NCBI RefSeq assembly: GCF_964194155.1
Contig: NC_135901.1
Coordinates: 2,232,001-2,296,000 of the forward strand
DNA length: 64,000 bases
Direction of reading: 5' to 3'
DNA from: Cetorhinus maximus
Lineage: Eukaryota
Positions 2,575-62,670 of this stretch are shown in pieces. The translations under genes and the position numbers were made by a program. Position 1 is the stretch's first letter, and each line of letters opens with the position of its first letter. Below the pieces are notes generated by a model. That model saw only the letters and a list, made by a program, of their open reading frames with translations, ran no database searches and had not been told where the DNA came from.

Positions 2575-3200
2575 TAGAATCCCATTCCACAGGCCCCACA
2601 TTTACATGGTTTTTCCCTGTTGTGGATGTCCTTGTGTCTCACTATGTTCAACAATCAGTTGAAGCCTCATATAAACGGTCTCTCCCCGTTGTAAATGGTG
2701 CAATGCTTTGTCAGGCTGTGTAACTAGCTGCAGCTCTTTCCAAAGTCATTGCACTGGAACACTCTCACTTGGGTGCGTTTGTCTCGATGCTTTGCCAGTC
2801 ATACTGATGTTAGAAATATTTTCAAACAGACAAATATTTCTCCTTCCACATTCAATGGCTGATGATCATCTGGTCCTGATGAATCAATTAAGTCTATCTA
2901 GAGTCCATACCAACTCTGCAGAGGAATCCAGTCAGATCCATTCCTCCTTTATATCCTCCTCACCCTGCAAATTTATTTCCTTCAAGTGTTCATGGGATGT
3001 TTGATTTGATTTTCCCATCTGCAAGTCCTCCTTCTCCAATATGCTTGACAAGACGTTTACTAAAGCCATTACAGTACGTACACAATAGAAATTAGAAACT
3101 GATATTCCAGTTGACATAAAAAATCCTTTTCCCTCTCAAACTAGAATTCTCCTTCCCTGAAGGTGCTGATTCTCGGGTTCAGTTTCAGAGTCACAATTTG
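2575..3200 (-). pseudogene. Truncated ZNF paralog remnant (upstream exon, leader, start of first finger)
   Basis: Reverse complement matches the family leader (ILEKEDLQMGKSNQTSH..., ggcttcaactgattg..., KC.ACG.GF). It ends against the Copia sequence. Confidence 0.8.
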
Positions 3201-3319
3201 CCTCCCCAATATGTCACCCAGGTAACTAAATCTCTACGCCTAAAGTTAACTAACAATTTTGTTCAAGCGATGTCAAAATCAAATCCAGTGACTTCTACAT
3301 GTACTTTGTGACAAGGTGG

Positions 3320-3700
3320 GGTCATTGCGCCCCTCACTCCCACTTTTCATGCCAGTCCCATGTGTTTGGAGATCGGGCTGTGGCTCAGTAATGGCAGCCG
3401 TAACTCCCACAAGTCCCCGCTTTAGGGAAACCGGTCTATCCACCGCGCAGGCGGGACGGCCCGGGAGTGCGCATGGGCAATGAAGAGAGGGGGTACGCAT
3501 GTGTGGAGAAAAGCGTTTCACGGTGGCCAACATTGGAACACGTCATGGGGTCAAAGTGTCTTCATGCGGGGATTGACCAATGGGAAGAATTGGAGGACCG
3601 GAAGGACTCTTGTCTTCCAGGCAATCAGAGCGCGGGCTTTGTGTCAATGAAGATTGAGTTTAACACAGACTAAAATTTCCTCATGTCCAAATCTGAGTAA
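3320..3700. promoter_or_regulatory. CpG-rich promoter and exon 1 of the ZNF gene at 4986 (type-1 promoter)
   Basis: CpG enrichment, gcgcagg/gcgcatg NRF1-like sites, CCAAT, and ZNF143-like gccgtaactcccacaagtccccgc at 3396-3420. Inverted paralog at about 62290-62670. Confidence 0.7.
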
Positions 3701-4985
3701 AACACTTTCTTTTCTCCCCCTTTCCATTACTTTTCTCATTCTGGGTTTAAATTGTTGACTTGCAGGAACTGAAGGGAAAGGAAGCGAATCCAGTGAGGGT
3801 GCAGACTCTGGAAAGGTTGGCCTACTCTCTCTCTCTCTTAAAGACATTGACATCGTTTGCTCACTCATCTTGGCACATTTGTTTGTCTGGCTAATGTTCA
3901 CATTTAAAGGGGTCGTTTTCCCAGGGAATGGCTGATATTTAAGGGGACAGTAAATTAATATAGGACAGGTTTAAGTGAAGTGATGTTATGTGGTTCATAT
4001 TAGACATATTATTTATGGTTTTCCAATTAAGTACATTTATTATTATTTCTAGTCTTGTAATATAGTACTGTAGCTATGTTATATATTTTCAGACAGTCGA
4101 TATGACACAGAAGGAGTCCATTTGGCAACTAGAGTCCATACCAACTCTGCAGAGGAATCCAGTCAGATCCATTCCTCCTTTATATCCTCCTCACCCTGCA
4201 AATTTATTTCCTTCAAGTGCCCATCCAATTTTGAAATAATTGATCATCTCTGCTGCCACCATCCCCATAGGCTATAGGCTGCCTAAATAAAGTTCTTCCT
4301 CACATCCTGCGTGTATCTCTAATCAAGTAATACATTACTGTATATTACATGCATCTTTAGTCCAAAAAATATATTATATGTATTAGAATCAGTGAGCATG
4401 GACCCGTTGATCAGCATGAATTGTCACCTTCAGAAGAATTGGGGCGGTGTATATTAGGTACAGCAGAGTGAGAATGGAGGGAGAGTGTGTGGGATGGAGA
4501 TTTACAGCTTTTGGGGAATGAGAGAGGAAAGAATGTTTCATAGAAACTAGAATTGTTTGTTTTGAATTTCTAACCAGTACTGACAGTGATGATTTTTGTA
4601 AACTCCTTTCACAGGATATCTGGAGGTGAGGATTTGCAGACTGAAATCTCAAAACAAACATCACACCATGATCTGACAGAGTCACTCGATTCATTGGGAT
4701 GTGGATGTCATTGGCATTTGAATCTAGAAGGAGAAATGTTTATCTGTTCTGTTTGTGGAGAAGATTTCAAACATCAGTGTGACCGGGAAAGCACCAAAAC
4801 ACACACACACACACACCTGAGTGGGAGTGTTACAGTGAACTGACTGTGGAAAGAGCTTTAACCAGTTACACAGCCTGAAAAAACATCACAGCATTCAAAC
4901 TGGGGAGAAACCGTAAATGTGCTCTGTTTGTAGATGAGTCTTCAACTGATTGTTGAACCTGGAAAGACAGAAGGACACCCACACC

Positions 4986-5576
4986 ATGGAGAAAAGATGG
5001 AAGTGTGGGGGCTGTGGGAAGGGATTCCGTTGCCCGTCTGATCTGGAAACTCATCGACGCAGTCACACTGGGGAGAGGCCATTCACCTGCTTTGTGTGTG
5101 GGGAAGGATTCAGCAAGTCATCCACTCTGCAGTCACACCAGCGAGTTCACACTGGGGAGAGGCCATTCACCTGCTCCGAGTGTGGGAAGGGATTCACTCA
5201 GTCAACCAACCTGCTGACACACAAGCGAGTTCACACCAGGGAGAGGCCGTTCACCTGCTCTGAGTGTGGGAAAGGATTCACTCAGTCATCCAACCTGCTA
5301 ACTCACCAGCGAGTTCACACTGGGGAGAGGTCATTCATTTGCTCCAAGTGTGGGAAGGGATTCACCCAGTCATCCAACCTACTGACACATCAGCGAGTTC
5401 ATACAGGGGAGAGGCCGTTCACCTGCTGTGTGTGTGGGAAGGGATTTAATCGGTTATCCAGCCTGCAGGAACACCAGCGCGTTCACACTGGGGAGAGGCC
5501 ATTCATCTGCCCTGTATGTGGGAAGGCATTCACTTGGTCCTCCCTTCTATTGAGACACCAGCGACTGCACCAGTGA
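4986..5576 (+). CDS. C2H2 zinc-finger protein, 7 fingers, 196 aa
   Basis: [10 protein letters not shown]..., TGERPF linkers, uninterrupted frame, ATG in accATGg context. Confidence 0.88.
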
Positions 5577-10620: not shown

Positions 10621-11349
10621 ATTTTATGAAAAGGAAATAGAAGCACTGGATAAGGGGCGACAAAGATTCACAAGAATAATTCCAAAGCTGAGAGCATTTA
10701 ACCCTCAGGAAAGGAGAGGGCTGTTTTTCTCCAGAAAAGAGAAGACTGAAGGGTGACCTGATGGAAGTCTTTAAGATTATGAAGGGGTTCAATAATTCAA
10801 CAGGGATTTCATGAGAAACCTCTTTACCCAGTGAGTGGTGAAAATGTGGAACTCACCACCACAGTGAGTGGTTGAGGTGAACAGCATGAATACATTTAAG
10901 GGGAAGCTAGATACATATATGAGGGAGAAAGGAATAGAAGGATATGCTGATGGGGGGAGATGAAGAGGGGTGGGTGGAGGCTCATGTGGAGCATAAATAC
11001 TGACATAGAGCAATTGAACCGACTGGCCTGGCCCTGTGCTATAGACTCAATGGAACAGAAACAAATGTATTTATTTTAGATCTACCTATAGTGGTAGGAA
11101 GAACACTATTTACTATCCAGGATAAAATAAATGTCCTTCATCAGCTTTTGTGGATTATTTCAGTGGAAATGTGCCCACTCAGGCTCAAAGAGCATCTGCC
11201 CACTGGAAGCAAAGTCGTGAGACCGGCTAGTCCAGCAGAAAGAAACCCTCCGACCCTCCCACTTCACCAACTGTCAGAATGAACATGGTTCAGTCCTGGG
11301 TGTGATTAACAGCAGCAATAACAGCAGAATCCAACTCCTGTCATCACTT

Positions 11350-12500
11350 GTGAACTCGCTGGTGTCTCAGCAAGGTTGGATGACTGAGTGAATACCTTTC
11401 CACACTTGGAGCAGGTGAACAGTCTCTCCATGGTGTGAACTCGGTGGTATGCCAGTACAGAGGATGAAACACCAAATCTCCTCCCACACGCAAGGCAGGT
11501 GAATGGCCTTTCCCCGGTGTGAACTTGCTGGTGTCTCAGCAGGTGAGATGACTGAGTGAAGCCCATCCCACACACAGGTGAACAACATCTCCCCAGTGTG
11601 AACCTGTTGGTGTGTCAGCAGATGCTATGCCTGAATGAATCCCTTTCTACACAGGGAGCAGGTGAACAGCCTCACCCCAGTGTGAACTCGTTGGTGTGTC
11701 AGCAGGGTGGATGAATTACTGAATCCGTTCCCGCACTCAGGGCAGGTGAACGGTCTCCCTCCTGTGTGAACTCGCAGGCGTGTCAGCAGTTGGGACGAAT
11801 TACTGAACCCTTTCCCACACATAGAGCAGGTGAATGGCCTCTCCCCAGTGTCAATATAATTCCAGTGCAGGCAGGGAAGGCAATCCCTTCCAACAGTCTT
11901 TTCCATGGTTTGTCCAAGGTGCGGTTGTCCTTGTGTCTCTCGAGGGTTGATGATCGGTTGAAGCCTCATCCACATACAGAACACGTGTACAGTTTCTCCC
12001 TGCTGTGAATGGTGTGATGTGTTTTCAGGCTATGTAACTGGTTAAAGGTCTTTCCACAGTCAGTGCACGGGAACACTCTCACTCGGGTATGTAGTCACAC
12101 TGATGTTTAAAACCTTCTGAAGCAGACAGACCAGAAAACAGTTTTCCTCCTCGATTCAAAACTGATGAAATTCAAAGGCCAATGATATTCAGATCCTGAT
12201 GAATCGAGTGATTCTGTCAGATGTTGATGTGACCTTTCATTTGAGATTTCTGTCTGCAATCTGTCCTGCAAAATGAGTTCACAAAAGTCATCATTGTCAG
12301 CGGAGGATAGAAATTCAGAACAGACAATTTTAGATTCCGTGGAAAACTTTTTCCTCTCTTATTCCCCAAAAGCTCTAAATCTCCACCCCACACACTCTCC
12401 ATTCTCTGCTGGACTTGTTTTAGACCCTCCCAATTCTCCTGAAGGTGGTGATTCATGCTGATAGATCCATGTCGACTGCTTCTTGTATTGGACCTTAAAA
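11350..12500 (-). pseudogene. ZNF pseudogene (about 7 fingers, deletions and frameshifts, start ATG changed to TTG)
   Basis: Finger ORFs split into 11625-11984 and 11306-11575; first finger partly deleted; accTTGgac at the usual start position. Confidence 0.85.
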
Positions 12501-12639
12501 TTTTCATACAATAAAAAACAGGTTCCACAAAATCACCAGCATTTCCCCCCTCAGCATATTTGGCACTAATTCCAGTTACAGATTCCCACAACTCTCTGTA
12601 CTTCCCAGGGAGTGTGAAGAAAGTGATTTACTCACAGAT

Positions 12640-13190
12640 GTTGGTCAGAGGAGGAAGTTTTAGTGTTTGCGAAGCTCAAAAGAAATGTTGTTCTGTTTAA
12701 AATCAAACTGCATGACTCGGAAGAAAATAAAGCGAAGACACTTCACAAAATCCCCTCCCCTCCCCCCCCCCCCACTCCTGCAGCTGGCAGCCCAGCGCGC
12801 AGGCGCAGAAAGCACTGCTGACCCGAGCTGGCCGGAGCAGGCGCAGTGCAGCTGCCGCCAGCGGTCGCGCTCGATCTCTTTTTGGATCAGGCAGCCGCCG
12901 TAGACAGTGTGGGGTGGGAAGGGCAGTTCGCTGAGCGGCTTCTCGGCCTGTCCGGAGCCGTCAGCCGGTTACCTGGAAACCTTGGCTCGAGGAGGGGGAG
13001 GGGGGGACAATGGGTGGGGGCAAGGCTCCCGTGTCCGCGCGCCTGGCGTGCAAGATTGGAACCCGAGGACGTCAACGCGGAGCAGAGTGATTCCCATTGG
13101 CTGGTTCAGGTAGGGTTCGATTGTGGACGTAACAATGCGGAAGTTGAACAATGAGCTTCAGGCTAAAACTTCTGTGCAACATCTGTCAGC
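12640..13190. promoter_or_regulatory. Bidirectional CpG-island promoter, type-2 copy 1
   Basis: gcgcaggcgcag (NRF1-like), gcggaagt (ETS-like) and attgg boxes, lying between divergent ZNF genes. Paralogs at about 21190-21730 and 49665-50295. Confidence 0.75.
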
Positions 13191-13255
13191 TGTGGCTCAG
13201 TTCATAGCACTCTCGCCTTTGAATCAGAGGGTTGTGGGTTCATGTCCCACTCCCG
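13188..13255 (+). mobile_element. tRNA-derived SINE head (SacSINE1-like)
   Basis: gtggctcagtt..tagcactctcgcc..gggttcatgtcccactcc with A/B-box-like motifs, inserted at the exon 1 donor region. Confidence 0.65.
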
Positions 13256-14711
13256 GAAACCAAGAACTGTGATTGTACTCAAAAGAGTTGCAATCTGTGA
13301 CTGTTGATAACTCGAAAAGAGTATCTGTGAGGAAATCAATGTATTTATTGTATGTCTATTTATTTTCTAATTCTGGTCTTAAATTGTTGACTTGCAGGAA
13401 CTAAAAGGAAAAGAGTTAGTCCAGGGAGGGTGCAGTTTAGAAAGGTTGGCGCAATCTCTACTCTCAAAGACATTGACATCCTTTGCTCTCTCATCATGAC
13501 ACATTTATTTGTCTGGCTAAAAGAATGGTCTCTTTCCTGATGTACAGAATTAAAGGGATGGTTTCCCCAGAAGGCTGACATTTAAGAGGACATAGTAAGG
13601 TAGGACATGTCTTGTGTATAGATAGCGTACGTCTAGTGTCATATGTTATATTCTAGATATTGTTGGTTCTCTGATAAAGTACATTATTTATTTCCAATTT
13701 TGTAATGTAGCACTGTATATGTCCAGCTATTGAGTCATTATAGCATAGAAGGAGTCCATTTAAGGGACAGTAAATTAACATCAGGCAGAGATATGTCTAG
13801 TGCTGTTATATGATACATATTATTTATGATTCTTTAATTAGGTACATTCAGTTAATTTCTAGTCTTGTATTACAGAAATGTAGTTACGTTATATATTTCC
13901 AGTCACAGAGACATTACGGTACAAAAGGGTGTCCATTCGGCAACTCAAGTCCATGCCGACTCTCTGCAAAGCAATCCAATCAGTCCCGTTTCCCCTCTTT
14001 ATCCCCGTTCCTCTGCAATTTTATTTCCTTCAAATCAATTTCATGCATCCATCCAATTTCATTTTGAAATTATTGATCATCTTTTCTCCCAATACCCTCT
14101 GCGGCAGTGAGTTGCTGTATGTCTGTGTGTTCGGGACAGGAAGCAGTGAGAATGGATCTGCTGATCAGCATGAATTGGCACCTTCAGAAGAATTGGGAGG
14201 ATGTTTATTAGGTCCAACAGAGTGACAATGGAGGCAGGGTGTGTGGGACAGAGATTTACAACTTTGGGGGGAATGAGAGAAGAAAGAATGTTCCATTGGT
14301 TCTGAATTTCTATCCTGTACTGACTGATGACTTTTGTAAACTTCTTTTACAGGATATTTGAAGGGGTGGAATTACGGATGGGAAACTCAAATGAAGCATC
14401 ACGTTAAGATCTGATACAGCAACTTGATTCACCAAAATCTGAATATCATCAGTCTTTGATTCCATAAGAGAAAGGTTTGTCTGTTCTGTCTGCATCCATA
14501 ATTTTTAAAAATTAGTATGACTGGAAAAGCACTGAGAGACACACACACACCCAAGTGAGAGTGTTCCAGTAAACTGACTGTGGAAAGAGCCTTAGCCAGT
14601 TCCACAGCCTGTTCGCACCATTTACAATGGGAAGAGACCATACACATGTTTTGTGTGTGGACCAGGCTTCAGCTGACAGTCAAGCTAGAGAGAAACAAGG
14701 ACACTTGCATC

Positions 14712-15302
14712 ATGGAGAAACCGTGGAAATGTGAGGACTGTGTGAAGGCATTCAGATCTCCATCTTTGCTGGAGATTCATCGACGCACACACACTGGGGA
14801 GAGGCCGTTCACTTGCTCAGAGTGTGGGAAGGGATTCAGCGATTCATCCAACCTGCTGGCACACCAGCGGGTTCACACTGGGGAGAGGCCGTTCACCTGC
14901 TGTGTGTGTGGGAATGGATTCAGTCAACTATCCAACCTGTTGCGACATCAGCGAGTTCACACTGGGGAGAGGCCATTCACCTGCTCCCAGTGTAGGAAGG
15001 GATTCACTCGGTTATCCAGCCTGCAGACGCACCAGCGAGTTCACACTGGGGAGAGGCCATTCACCTGCTCCATCTGTGGGCAGGGATTCAGTGATTCATC
15101 CACCCTGCGGCAGCACCAACAACTGCACAGTGGGGAGAGGCCGCTCACCTGCTCTGAATGTGGGATGGGATTCACTCAGTTATCCAGGCTGCTCAGACAC
15201 CAGCCAGTTCATACTGGGGAGAGACCATTCACCTGCTCCGTGTGTGGGAAGGGGTTCACTCGGTTATCCAGCATGCTCAGACACCAGCGAGTTCACAAGT
15301 GA
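14712..15302 (+). CDS. C2H2 zinc-finger protein, 7 fingers, 196 aa
   Basis: MEKPWKCEDC... intact frame to TGA. Confidence 0.88.
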   Translation: MEKPWKCEDCVKAFRSPSLLEIHRRTHTGERPFTCSECGKGFSDSSNLLAHQRVHTGERPFTCCVCGNGFSQLSNLLRHQRVHTGERPFTCSQCRKGFTRLSSLQTHQRVHTGERPFTCSICGQGFSDSSTLRQHQQLHSGERPLTCSECGMGFTQLSRLLRHQPVHTGERPFTCSVCGKGFTRLSSMLRHQRVHK

Positions 15303-15339
15303 TCACAGTCATTGGATTCTGTTGTTATTCACATCCAGT

Positions 15340-18727: not shown

Positions 18728-19846
18728 CCAACGGTCAGAGCATCTAAAAGGCTCTAATTTGTGTGACTGCCATGGTGTCTCAGCAGCTCGGATGAATGAG
18801 TGATTCCTTCCCACAAACTGAGCAGGTGAACAAATCTCTCCATTGTGAATTCGCTGGTGCCTCAGCAGGTTGGATAAATCACTGAATCCTTTCCCACACA
18901 CGGAGCAAGTGAATGGCCTCTCTCCACTGTGAACTCGCTGGTGTGTCTGCAAGTGGGATGACTGAGTGAATCCTTTCCCACACTCAGAGCAGGTGAACAG
19001 CTTCTCCTCACTGTGAACTTGCTGATGTCTCTGCAGGTTGGATGAATCACCGAATCCCTTCCCACAGTCAGAACAGGTGAACGGCTTCTCCCTGATGTGA
19101 ACTCGCTGGTGTTTCAGTAAATCGTACGACATTCTAAAGCTCTTTGCGCAGTGACAGCAGCTGAACGGTCTCTCCTCAGTGTGAGTTCCTACCTGATGGT
19201 CCATCAGCGCTTAGTGTGTAAAGCAGCTCCCACAGTCAGAGCATTGAACAGGTTTCCCATTGGTCTGAGTACCTTGGCGCCCCAGCGGACTGGGCTGACT
19301 GAATCCCTTCCCACACATGGAGCAGGTGAATCGCCTCTGCCTGGTATGAATGTGCTGGTGTCTCACCAGGCTGGATAACTGAGTGAATCCCTTCCCACAC
19401 TGAGAGCAGGTGATTGGCTTCTCCCTGGTGTGAATGTGTTGGTGTGTCAGCAGGAGGGATGAGTGAGTGAATCCCTTCCCACACTCAGAGCAAGTGAACA
19501 ACCCCTCACCAGTGTGAAATCGCTCATGATTCCACAGGGCAGATGACCGTGTGAATCCCTTTCCACACATGGAGCAAGTGAACGGTCTCTCCCCAGTGTG
19601 AACTCACTGGTGTATCAGCAGGTTGGATGAATCACTGAATCCCTTCCCACACTCAGAGCAGGTGAATGGTCTCTCCCTGGTGTGAACTCGCTGATGTCTC
19701 CGCAGGGTGGATGAATCAATGAATCCCTTTCCACACACGGAGCAGATGAACGGCTTCTCCCCGCTGTGGCTGCGCTGATGAGTTTCCAGTTCACAGGGGG
19801 CACGGAATCCCTTCCCACAGTCCCCACATTTCCATGGTTTCTCCAT
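18728..19846 (-). pseudogene. ZNF pseudogene (about 13 fingers; internal stops, frameshift, 3' end cut by LTR)
   Basis: MEKPWKC at 19846, TGA in finger 3 (19604-19606), a further break near 19210, and the frame runs into the Copia LTR. Confidence 0.82.
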
Positions 19847-21189
19847 GGTGTGGGGGTCCTTGTGTCTCTCCAAGTTCTACAATCAGTTGAAGCCTCATCT
19901 ACACACACAACACGTGTCTGGTTTCTCCCTGCTGTGAATGTTTTTCAGCTCTGTAACTGGTTAAAGCTCCTTTCATAGTCAGTGCAGTGGCACACATTCA
20001 CGAGGGTGTGTGCATCTCAGTGCTTTTCAAGTTAGATTAATGTTTAAAACCTTTTGAAACAGGCAGACATTTCTCTTTCTAAATTCATAGGCTGATGTCA
20101 CTCACGTCCCAATGCGTTGGGTAGCTCTGTCAAATCTTGACGTGATGTTTGGTTTGATATTTCTGTCTGTAAATCCTCCTCTTCTAATATCCTGTAAAAG
20201 GAGTTTACAAAAGTGATCACTGTCAGTACAGGATAGAAATTCAGAATAGACAATTCAAATTTCTATGGAACATTCTTTCCTCCCTCAATCCCCAAAAGCT
20301 GTAAACCTCAGTCCCACACTCTCCCTCTATCCTCACTCTGCTGTACCTAAAACACACCCTCCCAATTCTCCTGAAGGTTCTGATTCATGCTGATCGACAG
20401 ATCCATGCTCACTGCTTCCTGTACTGGACACAGAGACCTGAAAATCTTCATGCAGGCTGTCAGCCTAATATAAATATGTTTATGTTACTAGACTAAAAAT
20501 TAGTATAATGTACAGTCCCGTATCACTTGGTTAGAGGAAAAGCTCCATTTATGCAGTGAGTGGTCATGACCTGGTGAAAGTGAAGACAATCAATGATTCA
20601 AAATGAAATTGGATGTGCAGTTGAAAAAATGAACTTGCCGGGGAACCAAGATATAAAGGGGGAATGGGGCTGACTGGATTGCTATACAGGGAGTCGGCAT
20701 GGACTTGAGTTGTCAAATAGAATCCTTCTGTGCCACAATGACTCTGTGACTGGAAATATATAACGTAGCTACAGTACTATATTAGAAGATTAAAAATAAC
20801 AAAATGTGTTATAGAGCCATAAATATTATACCTAATATGTAACATATAACAACACTAGACATATCTTTGTTGTTATGATTCCCATGGAGACCGATAACGT
20901 TAAAATAAACACATTCCCAGACAAACCCAATGGAATAAACCGAAGGACAAGGTTTCACTTTTTTAATTTTTCCTGTAACAATCAAACTAAAATCAACACA
21001 AATGAAACATGCATTAACAGACAAGCAGGATTTGAACAGACAGGATAAATTTGACCTGAAACAGTTTATACAATAAAAGCAGGTTCCACAAAATCACCAG
21101 CATTTCCCCCCTCAGCATATTTGGCACTAATTCCAGTTACAGAGTCCCACAACTCTCTGTACTTCCCAGGGGAGGGAAAGAAAGTGTTT

Positions 21190-21730
21190 TACTCACAGAT
21201 GTTAGACAGAGGAGGAAGTTTTAGTGTCTGTGCGAAGTTAATAACAAACGCTATGCTGTTTAAAATCAAACTCAGAAATAAATGAAGGGAAGACATTTTG
21301 TAAACACCTCCCCCCCCCCCCAGCGCGCAGGCGCAGAAAGCGCTGCTGACCCGAGCTGTCCGGAGCAGGCGCAGTGCGGCTGCCGCCAGCGGTCACTCTC
21401 GATCTATTTTTGGACCCAGCCAACTGCCGTAGACAGTGGGGGGGGGAGGGGGAATTCACCGAGCGGCTTCTCGCTCTGGCCGGGGCCGACAGCTGGTTAC
21501 CCAGAAACCTTGGCTCGAGGAGGTGCAGGGGGAGCGGGAACAATGGGTGGGGGGCGGGACTCCCGTGTCAGCGCGCCTGGCCTGCAGACTACAACCCGAG
21601 GACGTCACCGCGGGGCAGAGTGATTCCCATTGGCTGATTCAGGCAAGGTTCCATGGTGGACATCACAGTGCGGAAGTTGGACAATGAGCTTCAGACTAAA
21701 ACGTCCTCCTCTGGGTAACATCTGTGGGGA
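21190..21730. promoter_or_regulatory. Bidirectional CpG-island promoter, type-2 copy 2
   Basis: Paralog of 12640-13190, between divergent ZNF copies. Confidence 0.75.
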
Positions 21731-22330: not shown

Positions 22331-22926
22331 ATTTCTTATAATCTCTCCAGGAAAGGAAGCAGTGAGCATGGATCTGTTCAGGAGAATTGCGACGGTGAAT
22401 TTTTGGCACAGCAGAATGAGAATGGAGCGATTGTGTGTGGGATAGAGATTTACAGGTTTTAGGGAACAAGAGATGAAAGAATGTGCCGTAGAAACGAGAA
22501 TTGCCTGTTCTGAATTTCCCACCTTTACTGACAGTGATGACTTTTCTAAACTCCTTTTACAGGATATTAGAAGGGGAGGATTCGTAGTCAGAAATCTCAA
22601 ACCAAACATCATGTCAAGATCTGACGGAGTCACTCAATTCATCGGGACCTGAATATCATCAGCCTTTGAATCTAATGGAGAAATGTTTGTCTGTTCTGAT
22701 TGCTTCATAAGGTTTTAAAGTTCATTGTGACTGGAAAAGCATCAAGATGCACACGCCCACGTGAGAGTGTTCTCGTGCACTGACTGTGGAAACAATATTA
22801 AGCATTTACACAGCTTGACAAAAACATCAGACCATTCACAGCATGGAGTGACTGTACACGAGTTCTGTTTGTGGATGAGTCCTCAACTGATCGTCGAACC
22901 TGGAGAGTCACAAGGACACCCACACC

Positions 22927-41490: not shown

Positions 41491-42415
41491 AATGTTGTGC
41501 ATTTCTATCCTGGACTGACAGGGATGGATTTTGGAAACTCCTTTTACAGGGGTTTAGAAGAGGAGGATTTACACACAGCAAACTCAAACCGAGAGAAATG
41601 TGTGTCTCTTCTCAATTTCTATCCTGAGCCAACTGATGAATTTTGTAAACCAAAAAAAAAATTACAGGTGTTGGGAAAGTTTGGGTTGGGGCATTTTTTC
41701 TTTAGAAAAAGGGAGAGGGAGGAACTGATAGAGGGCTTTACAATGATCAATGGGTTGGACGGGGTAGATATGGAGAGAATGTTTCCACTTGAAATGTCTT
41801 CACTCAGAGAGTGGTGAGAATATGGAACTCACAGGAAACCATTGAGGGAGAAAAATTGTGATAGTTTCAACAGGAGACTAGATGAGTACATGGAAGAAAA
41901 GGGATTAGAAAGATAAGCTGAAAGGCTGAGATGATTTGCATGAAATGGGGGGAGAAGCATAAAACTAGCAGAACAGTTGGACAGAATGGCCTGTTTGTCT
42001 GTTGCATATTTTGAGTATTTCAATTTAAACTTCATTTACAGGGTATTCGGAGGGTTGGATTTGCAGATGGGAAATTCAAACCAAACATCACATCAAGATC
42101 TGACAGAGTCACTTGATTCATTAGGATCCGAATATCATTGGCCTTTGAATGTGCAAGGAGAAATGTTTGGCTGTTCTATCTGTGGGAAAATGTTTCAAAC
42201 ATCAGTGTGACTGGAAAAGCACGAAGACAGACACACACACCCCGAGTGAGAGTTTTCCAGTGAACTGACTGTGGAAAGAGCTTTAACCAGTTACACAGCC
42301 TGAAAAAACATCATACTGTTCACAGCGGGAAGGGACTGTACACGTGTTGTGTGTGGGTGTGGGGCTGGGCTTCAACTGGTCGTCCAACCTGGAGAGACAC
42401 AAGGACACCCGCACT

Positions 42416-43564
42416 ATGGGGAAACCATGGAAATGTGGGGACTGTGGGAAGGGTTTCAATTCCCCATCTGAGGTGGAAACTCATCGACGCAGTCACACTG
42501 GGGAGAGACCGTTCACTTGCTCCGTGTGTGGGAAGGGATTCACTCAGTCATCCAGTCTCTACACACACCAGCATGTTCATACTGGCAAGAGGCCATTCAC
42601 CTGCCTTGAATGTGGAAAGAGATTTAATGCTTTGTCAAACCTCCGGACTCACCATCGTGCTCACTCTGATGAGAGACCGTTTAAATGTTCTGACTGTGAG
42701 AAGAGCTTTAAAAGCAGAAAGGATCTACTGACACACCAACGCACTCACACTGGGGAGAGGCCATTCACCTGCAATGTGTGTGGGAAGGGATTCACTCAGT
42801 CATCCCACCTCCTGACACACCAACTTGTGCACACTGATAAGAGACCTTTTAAATGTTCTGACTGTGAGAAGAGCTTTAAAAGTAAAAAGGATTTACTGAA
42901 CCATGAACACATTCACACTGGGGAGAGGCCATTCACCTGCTCCGTGTGTGGGAAGAGATTCACTTCTTCATCCCACCTTCTGACACACCAATTTGTTCAC
43001 ACTGAGCAGAGACCTTTTAATTGTCCTGACTGTGAGAAAAAATTTAAAAGCAAAAAGGATCTTCTGAAACACCAACACACTCACACTGGGGAGAGGCCAT
43101 TCATCTGCTCTATCTGTGGGAAGGGATTCACCCGGTTAGCCCACCTGCTGAGACACCATCGAGTTCACACTGGGGAGAGGCCATTCACCTGCAATAAATG
43201 TGGGCAGGAATTCATTGATTCATCTGACCTTCTGATACACCAGCGAGTTCACACTGGGGAGAGACCATATACTTGCCTTGAGTGTGGCAAAAGATTCACT
43301 CAGTCATCTCATCTCACTACACATCAACTTGTTCACACTGATCAGAGACCTTTTAAATGTTCTGACTGTGAGAAGAGATTTAAAAGTAAACAGAATCTGC
43401 TGACACACCAGCGAGTTCATACTGGGGAGAGGCCGTTCACCTGCTCCGTGTGTGGGAAGAGATTCGTTCAGTCAAACAACCTGCTGAGACACCAGCAAGT
43501 TCATATGCGACAGCGGGGGTTGGATTCTGATGTAATTGCTACTTTTATTCACATGCAGGACTGA
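42416..43564 (+). CDS. C2H2 zinc-finger protein, 13 fingers, 382 aa
   Basis: [10 protein letters not shown]... intact frame with a short C-terminal extension. Confidence 0.88.
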   Translation: MGKPWKCGDCGKGFNSPSEVETHRRSHTGERPFTCSVCGKGFTQSSSLYTHQHVHTGKRPFTCLECGKRFNALSNLRTHHRAHSDERPFKCSDCEKSFKSRKDLLTHQRTHTGERPFTCNVCGKGFTQSSHLLTHQLVHTDKRPFKCSDCEKSFKSKKDLLNHEHIHTGERPFTCSVCGKRFTSSSHLLTHQFVHTEQRPFNCPDCEKKFKSKKDLLKHQHTHTGERPFICSICGKGFTRLAHLLRHHRVHTGERPFTCNKCGQEFIDSSDLLIHQRVHTGERPYTCLECGKRFTQSSHLTTHQLVHTDQRPFKCSDCEKRFKSKQNLLTHQRVHTGERPFTCSVCGKRFVQSNNLLRHQQVHMRQRGLDSDVIATFIHMQD

Positions 43565-48895: not shown

Positions 48896-49664
48896 TCTGT
48901 ACAGTTCTGTTGAAGGGTCATGAGGACTCAAAACGTCAACTGTACTCTTCTCTGCCGATGCTGCCAGACCTGCTGAGTTTTTCCAGGTATTTATGTTTCT
49001 GTTTTTGTTTTGAATTTCCAGCATCCACAGTTTTTTGTTTTTATCTCTATGTATTTAATATCTTGTTAAATTAATAAACATTTATGTTAGTTTAGATAAA
49101 AAAAAAACCTTTTGAGACTGTGGTTTTATTTCTGAATTCAGAGCTGCATCTCAAAACATACCAATTGAAAATATAGGTTATGACATTTGTTCAAGTTTCT
49201 ATCTGGGATTTAAACAACTCAGCCTTTACCAACTGCTGTGTCATAACATCGCTGCAGTACTACATTACACGACTAGAAATAATAATAAATGTACTTTATT
49301 ACAGAAGCATAAATAATATATCTAATTTGTACAATATTACACCACTAGACATATCTATGTTGTTACAATCCCCTTAAAAGAAACAAATTCCCAGACAATC
49401 CTCAACGGAATAAATCGAAGGACAAGGTTAACTTTTAAAACTTATTCTGTAACAATCAAACTAAAATCAACAAAAATGAAGCATGCATTAAAAGACAAAT
49501 ATTATTTGAATAGACAGGATAAATTTGACTTTAAACAGTTTATACAATAAAAAACAGGCTCCACAAAATCACCAGCATTTCCCCCCTCAGCATATTTGGC
49601 ACTAATTCCAGTTACATAGTTCCACAACTCTCTGTACTTCCCAGGGGAGGGAAAGAAAGTGTTT

Positions 49665-50295
49665 TATTCACAGATGTTGGACAGAGGAGGAAGGTTAAGT
49701 GTCTGTATGAAGTTAATAACAAACGCTGTGCTGTTTAAAACCAAACTCTGGAGAAGATGAGGGGAAGATATATAGTAAACTCCCCTCTCCCACTCCCTCA
49801 GCTGGCAGCCCAGCGCGCAGGCGCAGAAAGCGCTGCTGACCGTGTTGTCCGGAGCAGGCGCAGTGCGGCTGCCACGAGCAGCCGCTCTCAGTAGCTTTTT
49901 GTTTTTATCTTTCCACCGATGCTGCCAGACCTGCTGAGTTTTTCCAGGTAATTCTGTTTCTGTTCTCGATCTCCTTTTGGGCCGCCGTAGACAGCAGCCA
50001 CGGCCGTGGGGGTTCGCTCCGCGGCTTCTCGCTCTGGCCGGAGCCGCCAGCCGGTTGCCTGGAAACCTTGGCTCGAGAAGGTGCAGGAGGAAGGGGAACA
50101 ATGGGTGGGGGTGGGGCTCTCGTGTCCGCGCGCCTGGCCTGCCCTGCCGCCTGGAACCCCAGCACGTCACCGCGGAGCAGAGTGATTACAAATTGGCTGA
50201 TTCAGGCAGGGTTCCATTGTGGACATCACAATGCGGAAGTTGGACAATGAGCTTCAGACTGAAACTTCCTCCTCTGGGCAACATCTGTGAGGAAA
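49665..50295. promoter_or_regulatory. Bidirectional CpG-island promoter, type-2 copy 3 (left gene missing)
   Basis: Paralog of the 12.8 kb and 21.3 kb promoters, with a ~75-bp Penelope-derived insert at about 49889-49963. Confidence 0.75.
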
Positions 50296-50489
50296 TCAGT
50301 GTTTCTCCCTTTCTATTTCTAATCTAATTCTGGTCTTAAATTGTTGACTTGCAGGAACTGAAGGAAATGAAGTTAATCCCAGGAGGGTGCAGACTCTGGA
50401 AAGGTTGCCCCAGTTCTCTCAGTGAAAGGGGTGGTTTGCCCAGTAGTTGGCTGGTATTTAATGAGACAGTACAGTAATATAGACATTGA

Positions 50490-50915: not shown

Positions 50916-52127
50916 ATAAAGAAATTTTTTTGGAAGTCTTACTATAGTTGCACAGGGCATTGTTGAGGCCACACGTTGAGTATTCTGCACAGTTTTGGAT
51001 TCCTTCCTTAAGGAGGGATATACTGGCTTGGAAGCCATTTGTAGAAGGTTCACTAGGCTGATTCCTGGGATGAAAGATTGTCATCTGAGAAATGCTGAGC
51101 AGGTTGAGCCTTAACTCATTGGAGTTTAGAAGAATGAGAGGTGATCTTTTTGAAACAAATGGCATTCTGAGGAAGCTGGACAGAGTAGGTGCTGGGAGAA
51201 TGTTCCCTCTCATGGGGAAATCTAGAACAAGGGGACACAGTTTAAAAAAGGGGTCTCCTATTTAAGATGGAGATGGGGAGGAATTTATTCTCTCAGAGGA
51301 GCGTTAGCCTTTGGAATTCTCTTCCACAGAGAGCAGTGGAGGCCGGGTCATTGAATATATTCAAGGCCGAGTTAGACAGATTTTTGATCAACAAGAGAGT
51401 CAATGATTATGGTGGACAGGCAGGAAAGTGCAGTTAAGGCCACATCAGATCAAACATGATCTTATTGAATGGCGGAGCAGGCTTGATGGTATGAATGGCC
51501 TACTGCTGTTCCCATTTCTTATAATCTCCGTTTCCAGGACAGGAAGCGGTGAACATGAATCTGTCGATCAGCTTGAATCGGCACCTTTAGGAAAATTGGG
51601 AGGGTGTATAGTTGGTACAGCAGAATGAGGATGTAGGGAAAGTGTGCGGGATGGAGATTCAGAGATTTTGGGGAATGAAAGAGGAAAGAATGTTCCATCA
51701 AAATTACAATTGTTTGTTCTGAATTTCTCCTCTGTACTGACAGCAATGACTTTTGTAAACTCCTTTTACAGGACATTAGAGGGGGAGGATTTGCAAATTG
51801 AAATCTCAAACTAAACGTCACGTCAACAGTCACTCGGTTCATCACGATGTGAGTATCATCGGCCTTTGAATCTAGAAGGAGAACTGTTTGTCTGTTTTGT
51901 CTGCTTCAAAAGGTTTTTAACATCAGTGTGACTGGAAAAGCACCGAGACACACAGGCCCGAGTGAGAGTGTTCCAGTGCATTGACTGTGGAGAAAGCTTT
52001 AACAGGTTACACAGCTTGACAAAAACATGAGACCATTAACAGCAGGGAGAGACTGTACACGTGTTCTGTTTGTAGAAGTGTTTTCAACTGATTGTTGAAA
52101 CTGGAGAGACACAAGGACACCCACACA

Positions 52128-53222
52128 ATGGAGAAACCGTGGAAGTGTAGGGACTGTGGGAAGGGATTCCAGAACCCATCTGCACTGGAAAATCATCGAC
52201 GCAGTCACACCAGGGAGAGACCATTCACCTGCCCTGTTTGTGGGAAGGGATTCACTCTCTCAGGCAACCTGCAGATACACCAGCGAATTCACACCGGGAA
52301 GAGACCATTCACCTGCTCTGAGTGTGGGAAGGGATTCACTCAGTCATCTTCCCTGCAGAGACACCAGCGAGTTCATACTGGGCAGAGGCCGTTCACCTGC
52401 TCTGATTGTGGGAAGGCATTTACTCAGTTATCCAGCCTGCTGACACACCAGCGACTTCACACTGGGGAGCGGCCATTCACCTGCTCCGAGTGTGGGAAGG
52501 AATTCACTCAGTCATCCGCCCTGTGGATACACCAGCGAGTTCACACTGGGCAGAGGCCGTTCACCTGCTCTGACTGTGGGAAGGCATTTATTCAGTTATC
52601 CAGCCTGCTGACACACCAGCGAGTTCACACTGGGGAGAGGCCATTCACCTGCTCTGACTGTGGGAAAGGATTCACTCAGTCATCCAGCCTACTGACACAC
52701 CAGCGACTTCATACCGGGGAGAGACCTTTCACTTGCTCTGAGTGTGGGAAGGGATTCAATCAGTCAACTAACTTGCTGACCCACTGGCGAGTTCACACAG
52801 GGGAGAGGCCGTTCACCTGCTCCAAGTGTAGGAAGGGATTCACTCATTTATCCACCCTGCGGAGACACCAGCGAGTTCACACTGGGGAGAGGCCGTTCAC
52901 CTGCTCCAAGTGTGGGAAGGGATTCACTCAGTCAACCGCCCTGCAGGCACATCAGCGAGTTCACACCGGGGAGAGACCATTCACCTGCTCTGAGTGTGGG
53001 AAGGGATTCAGTGATTCATCCCACCTGCTGATGCACCAGCGAATTCACACTGGGGAGAGGCCGTTCACCTGCTGTAACTGCGCGAAGAGATTCAGACTTT
53101 CATCCACCCTGCTGAAGCACCAGCAAGTGCATGCTGAGGAGAGGCCATTCACCTGCTCCGCTTGTGGGAAGGGATTCACTCAGTCATCCAACTTGATGAG
53201 ACACCAGCGAGTTCACAGATGA
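52128..53222 (+). CDS. C2H2 zinc-finger protein, 13 fingers, 364 aa
   Basis: [10 protein letters not shown]... intact frame. Confidence 0.9.
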
Positions 53223-56795: not shown

Positions 56796-59150
56796 ACAGT
56801 ATAGACAATACAAAGTTAGAAAGGGAAAGTTATCCTTTAAATTCCCCACATTTTGCCTCTAGTGCCTAAATCTAATAATCAAAACTCCAATATAAATAAC
56901 ATGTATTTGACTGACAAATGTTAGTGTTGGCTTACAGCCACAAGTTTTGAACTCCCATTTGAGCCTCTGGCTCCTTTCTGTCTCTTGCTCATGTCAATGA
57001 TGGAGCTGAGGGCTGAATTTAGCTGAGAATAACAGGGTCTGCATCGCATTTAAGAAATTGCCATGGGTATTGACTAACACGAAGATGCTGGAAGGCTAAC
57101 TGGGAAGTGGGCCTCCAACCAATTGGGGAAGGAGTGGGGGGCGACCGGGGCTGATAGTGACGTGACCCCTGGGGTTCAGTTCCCCTGTGACCAAAGCGGG
57201 GAGTGATGGGAACAGCGTACAGAGGAGCTGTAGAGAAACCATTTGGGTCCAGAACATTGTGCACATCCTTTTACTCTGGTTGTCTTTGATCCTTAAGTAA
57301 TTTTCTTCTTTTTAACCGTGTTATGTTTCCTGAATAAACTCTTATCAGAAAAAAATATTTGATTTTGCTGGGCTTTACATGATTAGATTTATGCACTTTA
57401 GGGAGAGTGGCAGGCTCTTTAACAGAAAATGAGTCCCTCTAAGGTAAAGGAGCCACAGGGGGAGATGAGATTTTATTTTTGACACAGCGATGTTAGAAAA
57501 TGGGGTTCAGGGAGTTAGTTAACCTTTTGTCCCCCTTTCCCAAACTCTTAAATGATTCACAGTGATAACACTTATTGGTGACAGTGGCTAGATATTATTC
57601 AACTAAGAGCTGACACTTGCTCATGTCTGAGCAGTAGTATCAAAGTGCAGCAGCATTACCATTGCACTCTGGATAGAAGCGCAATCTCCACTTAAATGCT
57701 CCATGGTATGTCCCAGACGCCATGGTTCCCACATAGAACCATAGAAAAGTTATAGCACAGAAGGAGACCATTCGGCCCATCTTGTCCATGCCAGCCCGAG
57801 GACACCCAGCAAGTCATTTCTTCTCAGGTTCGGGGAGATTTGATAGAGGTGTACAAGATTATGACAAGTTTACATAAAGTGGACAAAGAAAAGCTGTTCC
57901 CATTAACTGATGGTACAAGAACTGGGGGACACGGATTTAAGCTTTTGGGGAGGAGATGCAGGGGGATGTGAGGAAGAATATTTTACACAGTGAGTGGGAA
58001 TGACCTGGAACTCACTGCTTATAAGGGCAGTGGAAAAGGAGACAATGAATAATTTCAAAAGGAAATTGGTTGGACACTTGAGGGAAATAAACATTCAGGG
58101 TAACAGGGATAGAACAGGGCAATGGGACAGATTAGTTTGCTCTGTCGAGTCGACATAGACTCGATGGACTGAATGGCCTCCTTCTCTGCCCTAATGACTC
58201 TGTGATCGAAAGACAGAAATTTCAGCTGCTCCCGTCTCTCCAACTAACTGAAGACCCTTATCTCTGGTGCATTCTCACGATTCTCCTCTGCGTCCTCTCG
58301 CATAATTTCACATCTTGTCTAAAGTGCGGGGCTCAGTTGTCGGGTTCCTTTCTAGAGGTACAGAATTGAAAAGCAGGGAGGTTATGTTCAACTTGTTTCA
58401 AACCGTGGTTAGACTACACTGGGAGGACTGTTAACATTTTTGATCTCCATTTAGAAAAGGGAAATAGAGGCACTGGAGAAGTGGCAACAAATATTCACAA
58501 GAATAATACCAGAAATGAGAGCATTTCAACCCTCGCGAAAGTCTGGGGCTGCTTTTCTCTAGAAAAGAGAAGACTGAAGGGTGACCTGGTGGGAGTCTTT
58601 AAGATTATGAAGGGGTTCAATAATCCAATGGGGATTTCATGAGAAACCTCTTTATCCAGTGAGTGGTGAGAATGTGGAACTCGCTATCACAGTGAGTGGT
58701 GGTGGTGAACAGCATGAATACATTTAAGGAGAAGCTAAATACAAACAAGAGGGAGAAAGGAATAGAAGGATATGCTGATGGGGGAGATGAAGAGGGGTGG
58801 GTGGAGGCTCACGTGGAGCACAAATACTGACATATACCAATGGAGCCGACTGGCCTGGCCATGTGCTGTAGACTCAATGGGAGAAAAACAAATTTATTTA
58901 TTTTAGATCAACCTGGTAGGAACAACACTATTTACTATCCAGGATAATTAAATGTACTTCATCAGCTTTTGTGGATCATTTCAGTGGAAATGTACTCTCC
59001 CACATTCAAAGAGCATCAGCCCACTGGAAGCAAAGTCATGAGACTGACCAGTTCATCAGAAAGAAACCCTCTGGCCCTACCAACTTTCAGAATGAACATG
59101 GTTCAGTTCTGGATATGATTAACAGCAGCAATAGCAGCAGGATCCAACCT

Positions 59151-59994
<844 letters not shown>

Positions 59995-60552
59995 GGTGCA
60001 GGTGTCCTTGTGTTTCTTCAGGTTATTCCACAGTCAGTACACTGGAAAATTCTCATTTGGGTGCGTGTGTCTCGATGCTTTTCCAGTCACACTGATGTTG
60101 AAAACTTTTTGAAGCTGACAGAATAGACAAACATTTCTCCTTCTAGATTCAAAGGCTGATGATATTCAGCTCCCATGAATTGAGTGACTGTCAGATCTTG
60201 ACGTGACTTTTGTATTGCGATTTCTGTTTGCAAATCCTCCCCTTCTAATATCCTGTAAAAGGAGTTCACACATCCCATCAGTCTAGGATAAAAATTCAGA
60301 ACAGACAATTCTAATTTCTAAGGAACATTCTTCCCTCCTATGCTCCAAAATGTGTAAATCTCCATCCCACACACTCTCCCTCCTTTCTAACTCTGCATTA
60401 CCTAATGTACACCCTCCCAATTCTCCTGAATGTGGCAAATCATGCTAATTGACAGTTCCACACTCACCACTTCCTGTTCTGGACACGGAGGCATGAAAAT
60501 CTATCACAGGACTAAAAATGTGCGTAATATTCAGTACTCCAATACTGATATA

Positions 60553-61292
60553 GAGATACTGTACTATATTGTGGAGCTGGAGATAGAGTACTCTATTGCT
60601 GAGTGATACAGTGCTCTACTACTGAGTTAGAGATACAGTACTCTATTACTGAGCTAGAGATACAATACTCTGAAGCTGAGTTACAGATACAGTACCCTAA
60701 AGCTGAGTTAGAGAGACAGTACTCTGATGCTGAGTTACAGATACAATACTCTGATGCTGAGTTACAGATACAGTACTCTGATGCTGAGTTACAGATACAG
60801 TACTCTGATGCTGAGTTACAGATACAGTACTCTGATGCTGAGTTACAGATACAGTACTCTGATGCTGAGTTACAGATACAGTACTCTGATGCTGAGTTAC
60901 AGATACAGTACTCTGATGCTGAGTTACAGATACAGTACTCTGCTGCTGAGCTAGAGATACAGTACTCTGATGCTGAGTTACAGATACAGTACTCTGATGC
61001 TGAGTTACAGATACAATACTCTGATGCTGAGTTACAGATACAGTACTCTGATGCTGATTTACAGATACAGTACTCTGATGCTGAGTTACAGATACAGTAC
61101 TCTGATGCTGAGCTAGAGATACAGTACTCTGATGCTGAGCTAGAGATACAGTACTCTGATGCTGAGTTACAGATACAGTACTCTGATGCTGAGTTACAGA
61201 TACAGTACTCTGATGCTGAGTTACAGATACAGTACTCTGATGCTGAGCTAGAGATACAGTACTCTGATGCTGAGTTACAGATACAGTACTCT
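60553..61292. repeat. 27-bp minisatellite, about 27 units
   Basis: Unit gatacagtactctgatgctgagttaca repeated in tandem. Confidence 0.97.
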
Positions 61293-61458
61293 TAGATTTA
61301 CTTGGAACTTGCTGCCTACGATGCTGGTAGAAGCAGATATTAACAATGATTTGAGGATGAAATTAGTAGGCATTTGCAGGAAATAAACTTGCAAGACTAT
61401 GAGAATCTACAGGGTGAATGGGACTGCCTGGATTGCTTTATGGAGAGTGAGTGAGGAC

Positions 61459-61864
61459 TAAGCTTGCCAACTGTGATGAAATGTATTCCTGGAGGTTTCA
61501 CCGCATGATTTACCTCCACGTTCCAGCTGTTAATCAACCAACACAGCCAACCTTGTGCCGCACTGCCTTCCTACACCAATTGGAAAGCAAAAAGACTCAT
61601 TACCCACTTGGATGATACTCAACTGTCAGCCAAGCAGCCTTCCACACCCTCCCCAGCCGCCCACCACCCCACCTCCATCCCCACACACATTTTCAATATT
61701 TTTATATCTGGCAAAGTGAAATGTTCTAAGAAAATTACAAAAAAAAAACAATCTTTATTAATTTCCTGATGAATTTTCTCCAGGGTTGCACGCAGCAGTG
61801 AATTGGCGAATGGTCTTCAATTCCTGGAGACTCCAGGCTAATCTTGGAGAGTTGGCATGGACTA
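61459..61864. mobile_element. Probable non-autonomous DNA transposon (hAT-like MITE)
   Basis: Imperfect terminal inverted repeats ..ttgccaact / agttggca.., with ggacta on both flanks; it interrupts a CR1 tail. Confidence 0.5.
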
Positions 61865-62289
61865 AAGTCGCTGAATGCCAAAATGACTCTATGGTTGGAA
61901 ATATAAAATGCTACCACCACATATATTACAAGAATAGAAATAATAATAAATGTACATGATTAAAGAATCATAAATAATATCTCTAATATGTATCATATAA
62001 CAACACTCGACATAACACTTCCAATATTAATTTACTGTCCCTTAAATGCCAGCCATCTCCTGGGGAAACCATCCCCTTAATTATGAACATTAAGGAAGAG
62101 ACCATCCTTTTAGCCAGACAAATAAATGTGTCGAGCTGAGGGAGCAAAGGATGTCAATGTCTTTAAGAGAGAGAGACCTGGGCCAACCTTTCCAGAGTCT
62201 GCACCCTCCCTGGATTCAATTCCTTTCCCTTCAGTTCCTGCAAGTCAACAATTTAAACTCAGAATTAGAAAAGAAATGGAAAGGGGGAG

Positions 62290-62670
62290 AAAATAAAGTG
62301 TTTTACGCACAGATGTTGGACACAGGAGGAAGTTTTCGTCTCTGTGAAGCTCAAGCGCTGGAGACACAAAGCCTGCGCTCTGATTGGCTAGAGCAACAGA
62401 GTACTTCTGGTCCTCCAAGTCTTCCCATTGGTCAACATCTCAACTTAATGGTCATGTTGGGGAGAGCAGGGGCACTCCTCCGCACATGCGCAGCTTCTCT
62501 CTCCCTTGGACATGCGCAGTCCCGGGTCGCCCGCCGTGTGGCGGATAGAGCGGTTTCACCAACGCGGAGGATTGTGGGAGCTATAGCTGCCATTACTCAT
62601 ACAGATCCCAATCTCCAAGCTCTTCAGAGCTGGATGAAATGTGGGGGTGGGGGGGCGCACTGACCCCACA
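62290..62670 (-). promoter_or_regulatory. CpG-rich promoter and exon 1 of the minus-strand ZNF copy (type-1, inverted paralog of 3.3-3.7 kb)
   Basis: Two catgcgca sites, attgg boxes, and ZNF143-like gctatagctcccacaatcctccgcg on the minus strand at 62563-62588. Confidence 0.7.

Follow-up and report, generated by a model that had tools for sequence, protein, structure and literature searches.

Two-exon C2H2 zinc-finger genes with shared two-way promoters and a conserved first finger in the shark Cetorhinus maximus

Introduction

How sharks use their large sets of C2H2 zinc-finger (ZNF) genes is an open question, because their genomes are rich in repeats, hold 1,000-3,600 ZNF open reading frames (ORFs) and have no KRAB-ZFPs. 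The 64,000-nucleotide stretch of Cetorhinus maximus analysed here (NCBI RefSeq assembly GCF_964194155.1, contig NC_135901.1, positions 2,232,001 to 2,296,000; hereafter, at its full length, the window) poses this question in a compact form. An initial annotation of the window had described an expanding cluster of effector-less ZNF genes built as head-to-head modules on duplicated promoters, and had suggested that these genes may form a cartilaginous-fish system independent of the KRAB-ZFP and FiNZ clusters. What do such genes encode, what holds their sequence in place, and by what unit have they multiplied?

The explanation that best accounts for the results as a whole, and to which we give about an even chance (roughly 0.5), is that the genome carries about 2,000 two-exon bare finger arrays, many of them head to head, which are predicted to bind varied DNA such as transposons and whose first finger would recruit a partner. 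The parts of this explanation differ in strength, and we present them from the gene outwards.

A bare array in a single last exon

In a full copy of the gene, a CpG-rich promoter is followed by a short exon 1, then by an intron whose 240-bp end is conserved, and finally by a single large exon. Decayed linker and fingers take up roughly the first 380 nt of the latter; after them come an ATG some 6 codons before the first intact finger, the array itself and, usually, a stop one residue past the last His; in 68 of 73 tails this stop falls at the same codon. The tandem C2H2 array, with TGEKP-type linkers, lies entirely in this last exon, counts 5-36 fingers across the family and is built of 84-bp units that are only 61-85% alike. 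Open frames of exon 1 end short of the fingers, the leader of decayed fingers is closed by stops and frameshifts, and each leader contains 1-9 upstream ATGs.

The closure of the leader is general: none of the 21 intact genes with a located acceptor has an open one (2-10 in-frame stops, in any phase; 11 more intact genes are without a located acceptor), and in most genes an in-frame stop stands within about 15 codons of the ATG. No upstream exon can therefore be read into the fingers through this acceptor. In agreement with this layout, exon 1 runs straight into the finger exon (20190/1 to 21196/7) in contigs of the presumed RNA runs X1, X2 and X3, which come from two studies; a few of the joins carry 8-35 extra letters between the two.

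The coding possibilities outside the array were searched for effector domains. Upstream of the ATGs, 146 of the 153 stop-free frames of at least 36 amino acids were scored; they gave C2H2 remnants only and no KRAB, SCAN or BTB domain, and for BTB no genome-wide search was made. Genome-wide, the best 150 of 4,987 SCAN-like candidates were scored; all lie scattered off contig C24, the contig that holds the window, and presumably are capsids of an abundant long terminal repeat (LTR) retrotransposon family. The corresponding search for KRAB, with 150 of 152 candidates scored, returned a single match, at 9.11-9.12 Mb of contig C34. Since this match adjoins PR-domain exons and a near-identical minisatellite finger array, we identify it as PRDM9, apparently complete, and a lone KRAB of this kind agrees with what the part of PMC11603059 covered here states for the whale shark.

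Two more specific candidates were rejected. A 25-nt middle exon guessed from the sequence is not supported, the listed joins bypassing it, and an exon-1 peptide is ruled out as a shared effector: in type B the upstream ORF of exon 1 runs for 13 codons up to the splice junction, in type A there is a different one of 8 codons, and type L has no ATG at all. The initial annotation had recognised no KRAB, SCAN or BTB sequence and had proposed a bare finger array as the product; both views stand, and we hold the two-exon, bare-array architecture with high confidence.

The roughly 90 nt directly 3' of the stop (window 23515-23545, 5574-5660 and 53220-53330, with paralogs) are another conserved part of the gene, at 0.91 identity among paralogs against 0.67 at four-fold sites, and their in-frame translation recurs in Heterodontus gene models. 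A read-through tail acting as effector is nevertheless ruled out, with 11 synonymous against 44 nonsynonymous variants (ratio 1.37, 39 in-register tails) and in-frame stops in the short-leader subtype of the gene. A structured RNA is ruled out likewise, by z-scores of -0.70 to 0.91 against shuffles in seven folds; no Rfam match was found within the window. Possible readings of the tail are a DNA or RNA binding site common to the paralogs and a tract left by conversion.

Constraint on the arrays

In four genes of the window, compared across five recent copies, the frame is kept in 20 of 20 cases. These comparisons hold 31 synonymous and 39 nonsynonymous changes (ratio of nonsynonymous to synonymous changes per site, pN/pS, 0.48; p=0.003) and no frameshift, where 12-17 would be expected from flanking rates. 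In 262 internal fingers of 33 intact genes, omega (dN/dS) is 0.05 at the F/L positions and 0.35 in the linkers, and reaches 1.36 at the helix positions -1, 3 and 6 that contact bases (p=7e-7, with one synonymous rate). These values come from our own codon likelihood with a fixed finger tree, equal codon frequencies and no recombination correction, and exchange among fingers blurs any tree of them. Purifying selection acts on the fold and frame of intact genes, and their base-contact positions are free to change. That these genes form a functional DNA-binding family is probable.

A conserved first finger

The first finger of the array departs from the others. Among 32 intact genes, W precedes the first Cys in all 32, P stands at +1 in all 32 and E at +5 in 31, while -1, 3 and 6 vary. 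Omega in finger 1 is 0 at +1 and 0.05-0.10 at +5, significantly so under both tests, as compared with about 0.9-2.3 at the same two positions of internal fingers (+5: 1.3-1.8). The same residues are present in 32 first fingers outside the strict intact set, and the finger remains conserved when it is not first, as in the short-leader subtype. In known finger structures, +5 points away from the DNA.

The signature extends to other sharks, occurring in 13 of 19 of their proteins (Heterodontus, Mustelus, Scyliorhinus), with a near match in Pristiophorus, and in none of 2,476 fingers from 111 non-shark proteins; this count omits two further rows, possibly non-independent. The first finger is the best candidate for a function shared by the whole family, and could possibly, though we put this tentatively, present a partner-contact surface.

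Extent of the family

Contig C24, 65 Mb long in a genome of 3.99 Gb, holds the window at 2.23-2.30 Mb. Finger arrays were met in 5 of 10 blind 20-kb samples taken between 5 and 63 Mb of C24. We counted 103 arrays in 904 kb of array-bearing sequence, a sample of six regions that is biased in that three were picked by likeness to a window query; 46 of the arrays are contained in a single ORF, and 33 remain under a strict filter for intactness. Two exact motifs have 411 and 447 matches genome-wide against 22 and 23 in the 904-kb sample, from which we extrapolate to some 1,900-2,000 arrays. Among the matches listed (the first 100 per motif), 96 and 98 are on C24.

The proteins most similar to these are ZNFs of sharks, and none of them has a KRAB or SCAN Pfam mark; a PDB sequence search gave only generic C2H2 proteins. 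The attribution of the system to cartilaginous fishes is in keeping with this.

Shared promoters and head-to-head pairs

The four pairs named in the initial annotation (2.9k/5.0k, 11.9k/14.7k, 19.8k/22.9k and 35.8k/42.4k) are all divergent, but the duplicated promoters with which it credited them hold for some pairs only. The 11.9k/14.7k and 19.8k/22.9k pairs share one duplicated two-way cassette, a third copy of which, at 49.5-50.4k, has no minus-strand gene. At 2.9k/5.0k there is another promoter variant and a dead partner, and the promoter sequence of 35.8k/42.4k has no match to the exon-1 cassette. In the 19.8k/22.9k cassette two first exons less than 1 kb apart diverge from a CpG-rich core (donors 21196 and 21724). 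The presumed RNA contigs cover both exon-1 regions, without strand or copy information, and give a splice join for the minus arm only. In the window, 9 of 9 NRF1-like and 5 of 7 ETS-like motifs fall inside seven promoter patches.

Beyond the window, same-strand neighbours make up 28 of 97 arrays in the 904-kb sample, so that strands alternate more than by chance (p=4e-5). The excess stems from the long-leader subtype (19 of 76 same-strand); the two distal regions taken alone show no excess alternation (9 of 21 same-strand). We found 15 divergent exon-1 pairs at most 700 bp apart, and 14 of them are heterotypic: 11 join types A and B, and the three L/B pairs are those of the window. Between profile blocks, 10 of the 11 A/B cores span 229-252 bp, and eight aligned cores match end to end. 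Across exon 1 and the first 150 bp of the intron, each promoter arm repeats the other in inverted orientation.

Two side observations concern the window cassettes. At 13187-13322, about 137 bp that the five segmental copies lack interrupt exon 1 (type B) of the 14.7k gene. The L-type minus arms at 12508, 21073 and 49544 have in all three cases a gene that is dead or missing, and their B-type partners are intact.

Segmental duplication and exchange

A promoter plus its gene pair had been proposed as the duplicating unit, and this claim of the initial annotation is not supported. On C24 there are five other copies, each of them matching 59-62 kb of the window with an identity that is mostly 93.5-99.8%; a sixth has 91-95% identity over the 30 kb compared. 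An uncollapsed haplotype could account for the most similar copy, but not for the mosaic copies of 94-97%. What has duplicated recently is a block 60 kb or more in length, of which five near-complete copies are present.

Nor do the two arms of the promoter carry separate gene lineages. Mapped onto a tree built from 57 gene bodies, promoter type must change 10 times; strongly supported branches force 4 or more of these changes (the bootstrap is not settled), and fixed left-arm and right-arm lineages are rejected. The promoter label is still more clustered on this tree than in shuffles (1/200), because of recent co-duplications. The distances of partners are uncorrelated (Mantel r -0.21, p 0.90, 13 pairs), and both genes are intact in only 1 of 15 tight pairs. 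A clean inversion of the promoter core, swapping the A and B labels within a pair, was also considered; the 13 pairs offer no reciprocal example, only general shuffling.

Within the arms, the intron-1 block (its first 150 bp; window 21724-21870 and paralogs) has 0.93-0.94 identity among the copies at 27-31 Mb, between arms too, compared with 0.81 for the leader, and 0.86 identity between those copies and the window copies. By inference, the block either serves as an exchange point or is strongly constrained, two possibilities that are not separable here. Over longer times, as the tree and the pair comparisons indicate, the cassette appears to persist while its genes change, the gene bodies being shuffled between promoter arms and not inherited as fixed pairs.

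Features of the window

By six-frame scanning, self-alignment and profile searches, we count 11 C2H2 gene copies within the window: six intact ORFs, three frameshifted genes and two remnants (Table 1). This equals the minimum set by the initial annotation, and the active birth and death that it had perceived is evident in the broken, lost and duplicated copies, both among the 103 arrays and as gene losses among the segmental copies. The ORF of the 42.4k gene is open in 5 of 5 close copies, two of which have Cys/His losses.

Table 1. Coordinates of the zinc-finger genes, remnants and promoter elements in the window
Feature	Position	Strand	Remarks
ZNF remnant, dead	2559..3230	-	Retains intron block, leader exon and a broken first finger; pairs with 5.0k gene
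Type-A promoter and exon-1 block with 'solo-A' upstream part	3227..3828	+	Inverted copy at 62.2-62.8k; donor altered in the 3227..3828 copy
ZNF exon	4615..5576	+	Closed leader from 4615; ORF 4986-5576, 196 amino acids, 7 fingers
ZNF pseudogene, frameshifted	11273..12260	-	Array near 11.3-12.0k
Two-way promoter cassette	12508..13459	.	Exon 1 of L on minus strand, of B on plus strand; B block split by ~137 bp, usual donor missing
ZNF exon	14353..15302	+	ORF 14712-15302, 196 amino acids, 7 fingers
Broken ZNF gene, frameshifted	18845..20191	-	First ORF 80 amino acids; acceptor AG 20193-20192; array near 18.8-19.8k
Intron 1 (GT..AG, 1005 nt)	20192..21196	-	Missing from presumed RNA contigs of family members
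Two-way promoter core	21197..21723	.	Exon-1 donors 21196 (minus), 21724 (plus); CpG-rich; CCAAT-, NRF1- and ETS-like motifs
ZNF exon	22563..23517	+	Closed leader; ORF 22927-23517, 196 amino acids, 7 fingers; intact in 5/5 close copies
Short-leader subtype ZNF ORF	34788..35825	-	345 amino acids, 12 fingers; intact in 5/5 close copies
ZNF remnant	36305..36486	+	Part of one last finger and conserved 3' tail
CpG patch, candidate promoter of different sequence	38560..38860	.	Donor-like GTGAGA facing both ways: 38649 minus, 38838 plus
Second CpG patch	41230..41500	+	Upstream of 42.4k gene
ZNF exon	42042..43564	+	ORF 42416-43564, 382 amino acids, 13 fingers; tail read in frame
Two-way promoter cassette (L/B)	49544..50418	.	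Minus-strand exon 1 without remaining gene body
ZNF exon	51772..53222	+	ORF 52128-53222, 364 amino acids, 13 fingers; intact in 5/5 close copies
ZNF pseudogene, frameshifted	59150..60259	-	First ORF 48 amino acids; array near 59.2-60.0k
Type-A-like promoter and exon 1 of 59.9k gene	62173..62759	-	

The remainder of the window is debris of long interspersed nuclear elements (LINEs) and LTR elements, and a 27-bp minisatellite. The latter, at 60605-61292 within intron 1 of the 59.9k pseudogene, has 25.5 copies that are 93% alike; it is open in several frames and its Pfam matches are spurious only. Just past the stop of the 14.7k gene, at 15330-15900, a gag/protease remnant like that of an LTR retrotransposon, identified by eye and with no Pfam match, truncates the 3' tail. 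ARAGORN calls a tRNA-Thr(agt) at 55888-55976, likely a tRNA-derived repeat. Finally, a 91-bp stretch is 100% identical at 2898-2988 and 4129-4219, 1.2 kb apart; since the copy inside the leader of the dead gene is absent from two segmental copies, it looks like a recent templated insertion.

Discussion

The mechanism that we favour can be set out as a sequence of conditional steps. Two-way promoters would transcribe pairs of bare arrays. Segmental duplication, together with exchange at the promoter arms, would supply new combinations, most of which die; such exchange, via the near-identical exon-1/intron-1 arms, could shuffle bodies between promoters while keeping the head-to-head layout. The survivors would keep their fold and vary their contact residues, leaving the contact positions free to retarget. 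By analogy with better-known ZNF systems, the surviving proteins most likely would bind repeats and dampen them, and finger 1 would recruit a partner. That transposons are the main targets is, on the same analogy, a proposition that falls slightly short of even odds. Its boldest form, a third independent vertebrate ZNF defence against transposons, with the first finger as effector and the near-identical promoter arms as the exchange point that reshuffles a repertoire the size of a chromosome, is speculative and rather unlikely.

Several of our own results weigh against this explanation. The runs that support the splice join are guessed to be RNA, carry other organism labels and match this sequence at 82% likeness, and so report family members, not these genes; one contig of the presumed DNA run X8 has the same exon join. 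The four genes with a perfect record of frame retention were chosen for being intact, and of the other two intact genes of the window that at 5.0k is broken in 2 of 5 copies and that at 14.7k is doubtful in 1. Just 33-46 of the 103 arrays are intact. The initial annotation had named dN/dS at the contact positions of the helix as a check: the value of 1.36 obtained with a global synonymous rate becomes 1.11 (p=0.48) with the rate taken from those same sites, and the recent copies show only 3 contact changes (ratio 0.26). The contact omega is thus not robustly above 1, and with so few recent changes an arms race is suggested rather than demonstrated. Lastly, the W of finger 1 occupies the usual hydrophobic-core position and its P(+1) may merely start the helix, so that the conservation of this finger could be structural.

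If that were so, the proteins might be truly effector-less and act by occupancy, blocking polymerase, transcription factors or integrases, with finger 1 as a structural cap and the start lying six residues earlier. The finding of no domain besides fingers would suit such proteins, as would the W at the core F/Y position, the P at the start of the helix and the variation of finger 1 at -1, 3 and 6, as at DNA-reading sites. We nevertheless think this doubtful: a structural cap leaves unexplained why E(+5) is fixed as well, at a position that is free in internal fingers, and why the same finger is conserved in the short-leader subtype, where it is not first.

It is also possible, though unlikely, that the expansion is mostly mutational, a recombination-prone cassette and segmental duplication multiplying the genes while a subset is kept folded and the contacts drift with no transposon arms race. 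Over half of the arrays are broken, five recent copies of at least 59 kb exist, the contact omega and the lack of a contact excess in recent copies are as drift would have them, and conversion would account for the greater uniformity of the intron-1 block (0.93, against 0.81 for the leader). Against this stand the purifying selection on frame and fold in recent copies, the sharing of the family features by several shark orders, and the contact residues themselves, which are mostly among those that we take to be typical base-reading residues.

An overlooked effector exon or isoform, for example a short unrecognised peptide spliced in through a cryptic acceptor near the ATG, we regard as very improbable. 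The extra letters in some exon-1/finger-exon contigs and a formerly coding leader leave room for it, and so does the scan itself, which began at 36 amino acids and used no FiNZ profile, when the FiNZ domain has just 28; yet every leader tested is closed by 2-10 stops, a further in-frame stop lies close behind the ATG in most genes, and the exon-1 frames differ among types A, B and L. Most improbable of all is an RNA or chromatin role, in which two-way transcription of thousands of similar genes would supply pathways of self-silencing or small RNAs, and the conserved 3' element would be a shared handle: the identity of the post-stop tail and the upstream ATGs, which would damp translation, are in its favour, but the tail has no Rfam match, folds no better than shuffles and follows a protein under strong constraint.

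For the question of how these proteins act, the locus offers a layout that can be put to the test: an array without other domains, a single fixed first finger, a common promoter cassette and a start sequence that the genes share. The last could allow knockdown of the whole family at once, as has been done for the FiNZ genes. Should finger 1 recruit a co-repressor, ZNF-based genome defence would need no separate effector domain; should it not, the family would be a natural test of repression by occupancy alone.

Among known systems, the KRAB-ZFP clusters of coelacanth, lungfish and tetrapods are alike in having a tandem C2H2 array in one last exon, clustering, birth and death, and variable contact residues. 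The shark genes differ in that they have no KRAB exon and an exon 1 that does not code into the fingers, and they have in addition an asymmetric two-way promoter shared between genes, and a first finger that is fixed; sharks fall outside the KRAB-ZFP range reported in the parts covered of PMC10380595 and PMC11603059. The cyprinid FiNZ-ZNFs of zebrafish chromosome 4q, as described in the part of PMC10547256 drawn on here, share the presence of hundreds to thousands of lineage-specific ZNFs on one chromosome, a two-exon layout and equivocal-to-positive selection at contact sites, and for them transposon derepression has been shown. Their first exon codes for an acidic domain of 28 amino acids, whereas the shark leader is closed, with no open frame from acceptor to fingers (likeness to the FiNZ sequence was not scored). 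The independence from both systems that the initial annotation had supposed is supported.

Other comparisons are more distant. SCAN- and BTB-ZNFs are set apart by domains that the 146 scored upstream frames do not contain, and a PRDM9-type array by its PR/SET domain, which is absent here, and by near-identical units, which these are not; the true PRDM9 is the gene on C34. The C2H2 expansions of cephalopods are likewise large, lineage-specific and beyond the KRAB range, but belong to an unrelated lineage, and the passages covered of PMC12513265 describe no head-to-head promoter module. The single C2H2 dimerisation domains of dipterans (CGx-Phi; PMC12774644, in part) offer a precedent for an N-terminal C2H2 finger as a protein-contact module; theirs is a separate finger with an added beta-strand, whereas the shark finger is the first unit of the array and has no added element.

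For sharks themselves, the supplement of Wells et al. (PMC10547256), in the part covered, lists 1,851 ZNF ORFs in Carcharodon, 3,586 in Scyliorhinus canicula, 1,223 in Amblyraja and 475 in Callorhinchus, although the main text does not contain the word 'shark', and the covered part of the catshark genome paper (PMC11979771) reports that chromosomes 13 and 17 carry clusters of zinc-finger genes rich in recent duplicates. In these parts neither work describes gene structure, promoters, the missing effector, the first-finger signature or selection. A search of the literature, with subscription journals largely outside its coverage, gave no account of this gene structure, promoter cassette or first-finger signature, and a search by term found no mention of zinc fingers in the other shark genome papers covered. 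The shark genes are like the KRAB-ZFP and FiNZ clusters in layout and turnover, and the defining domain of both is absent from them; shark ZNF expansion counts are already in print, and what is new, within the literature searched, is this gene architecture.

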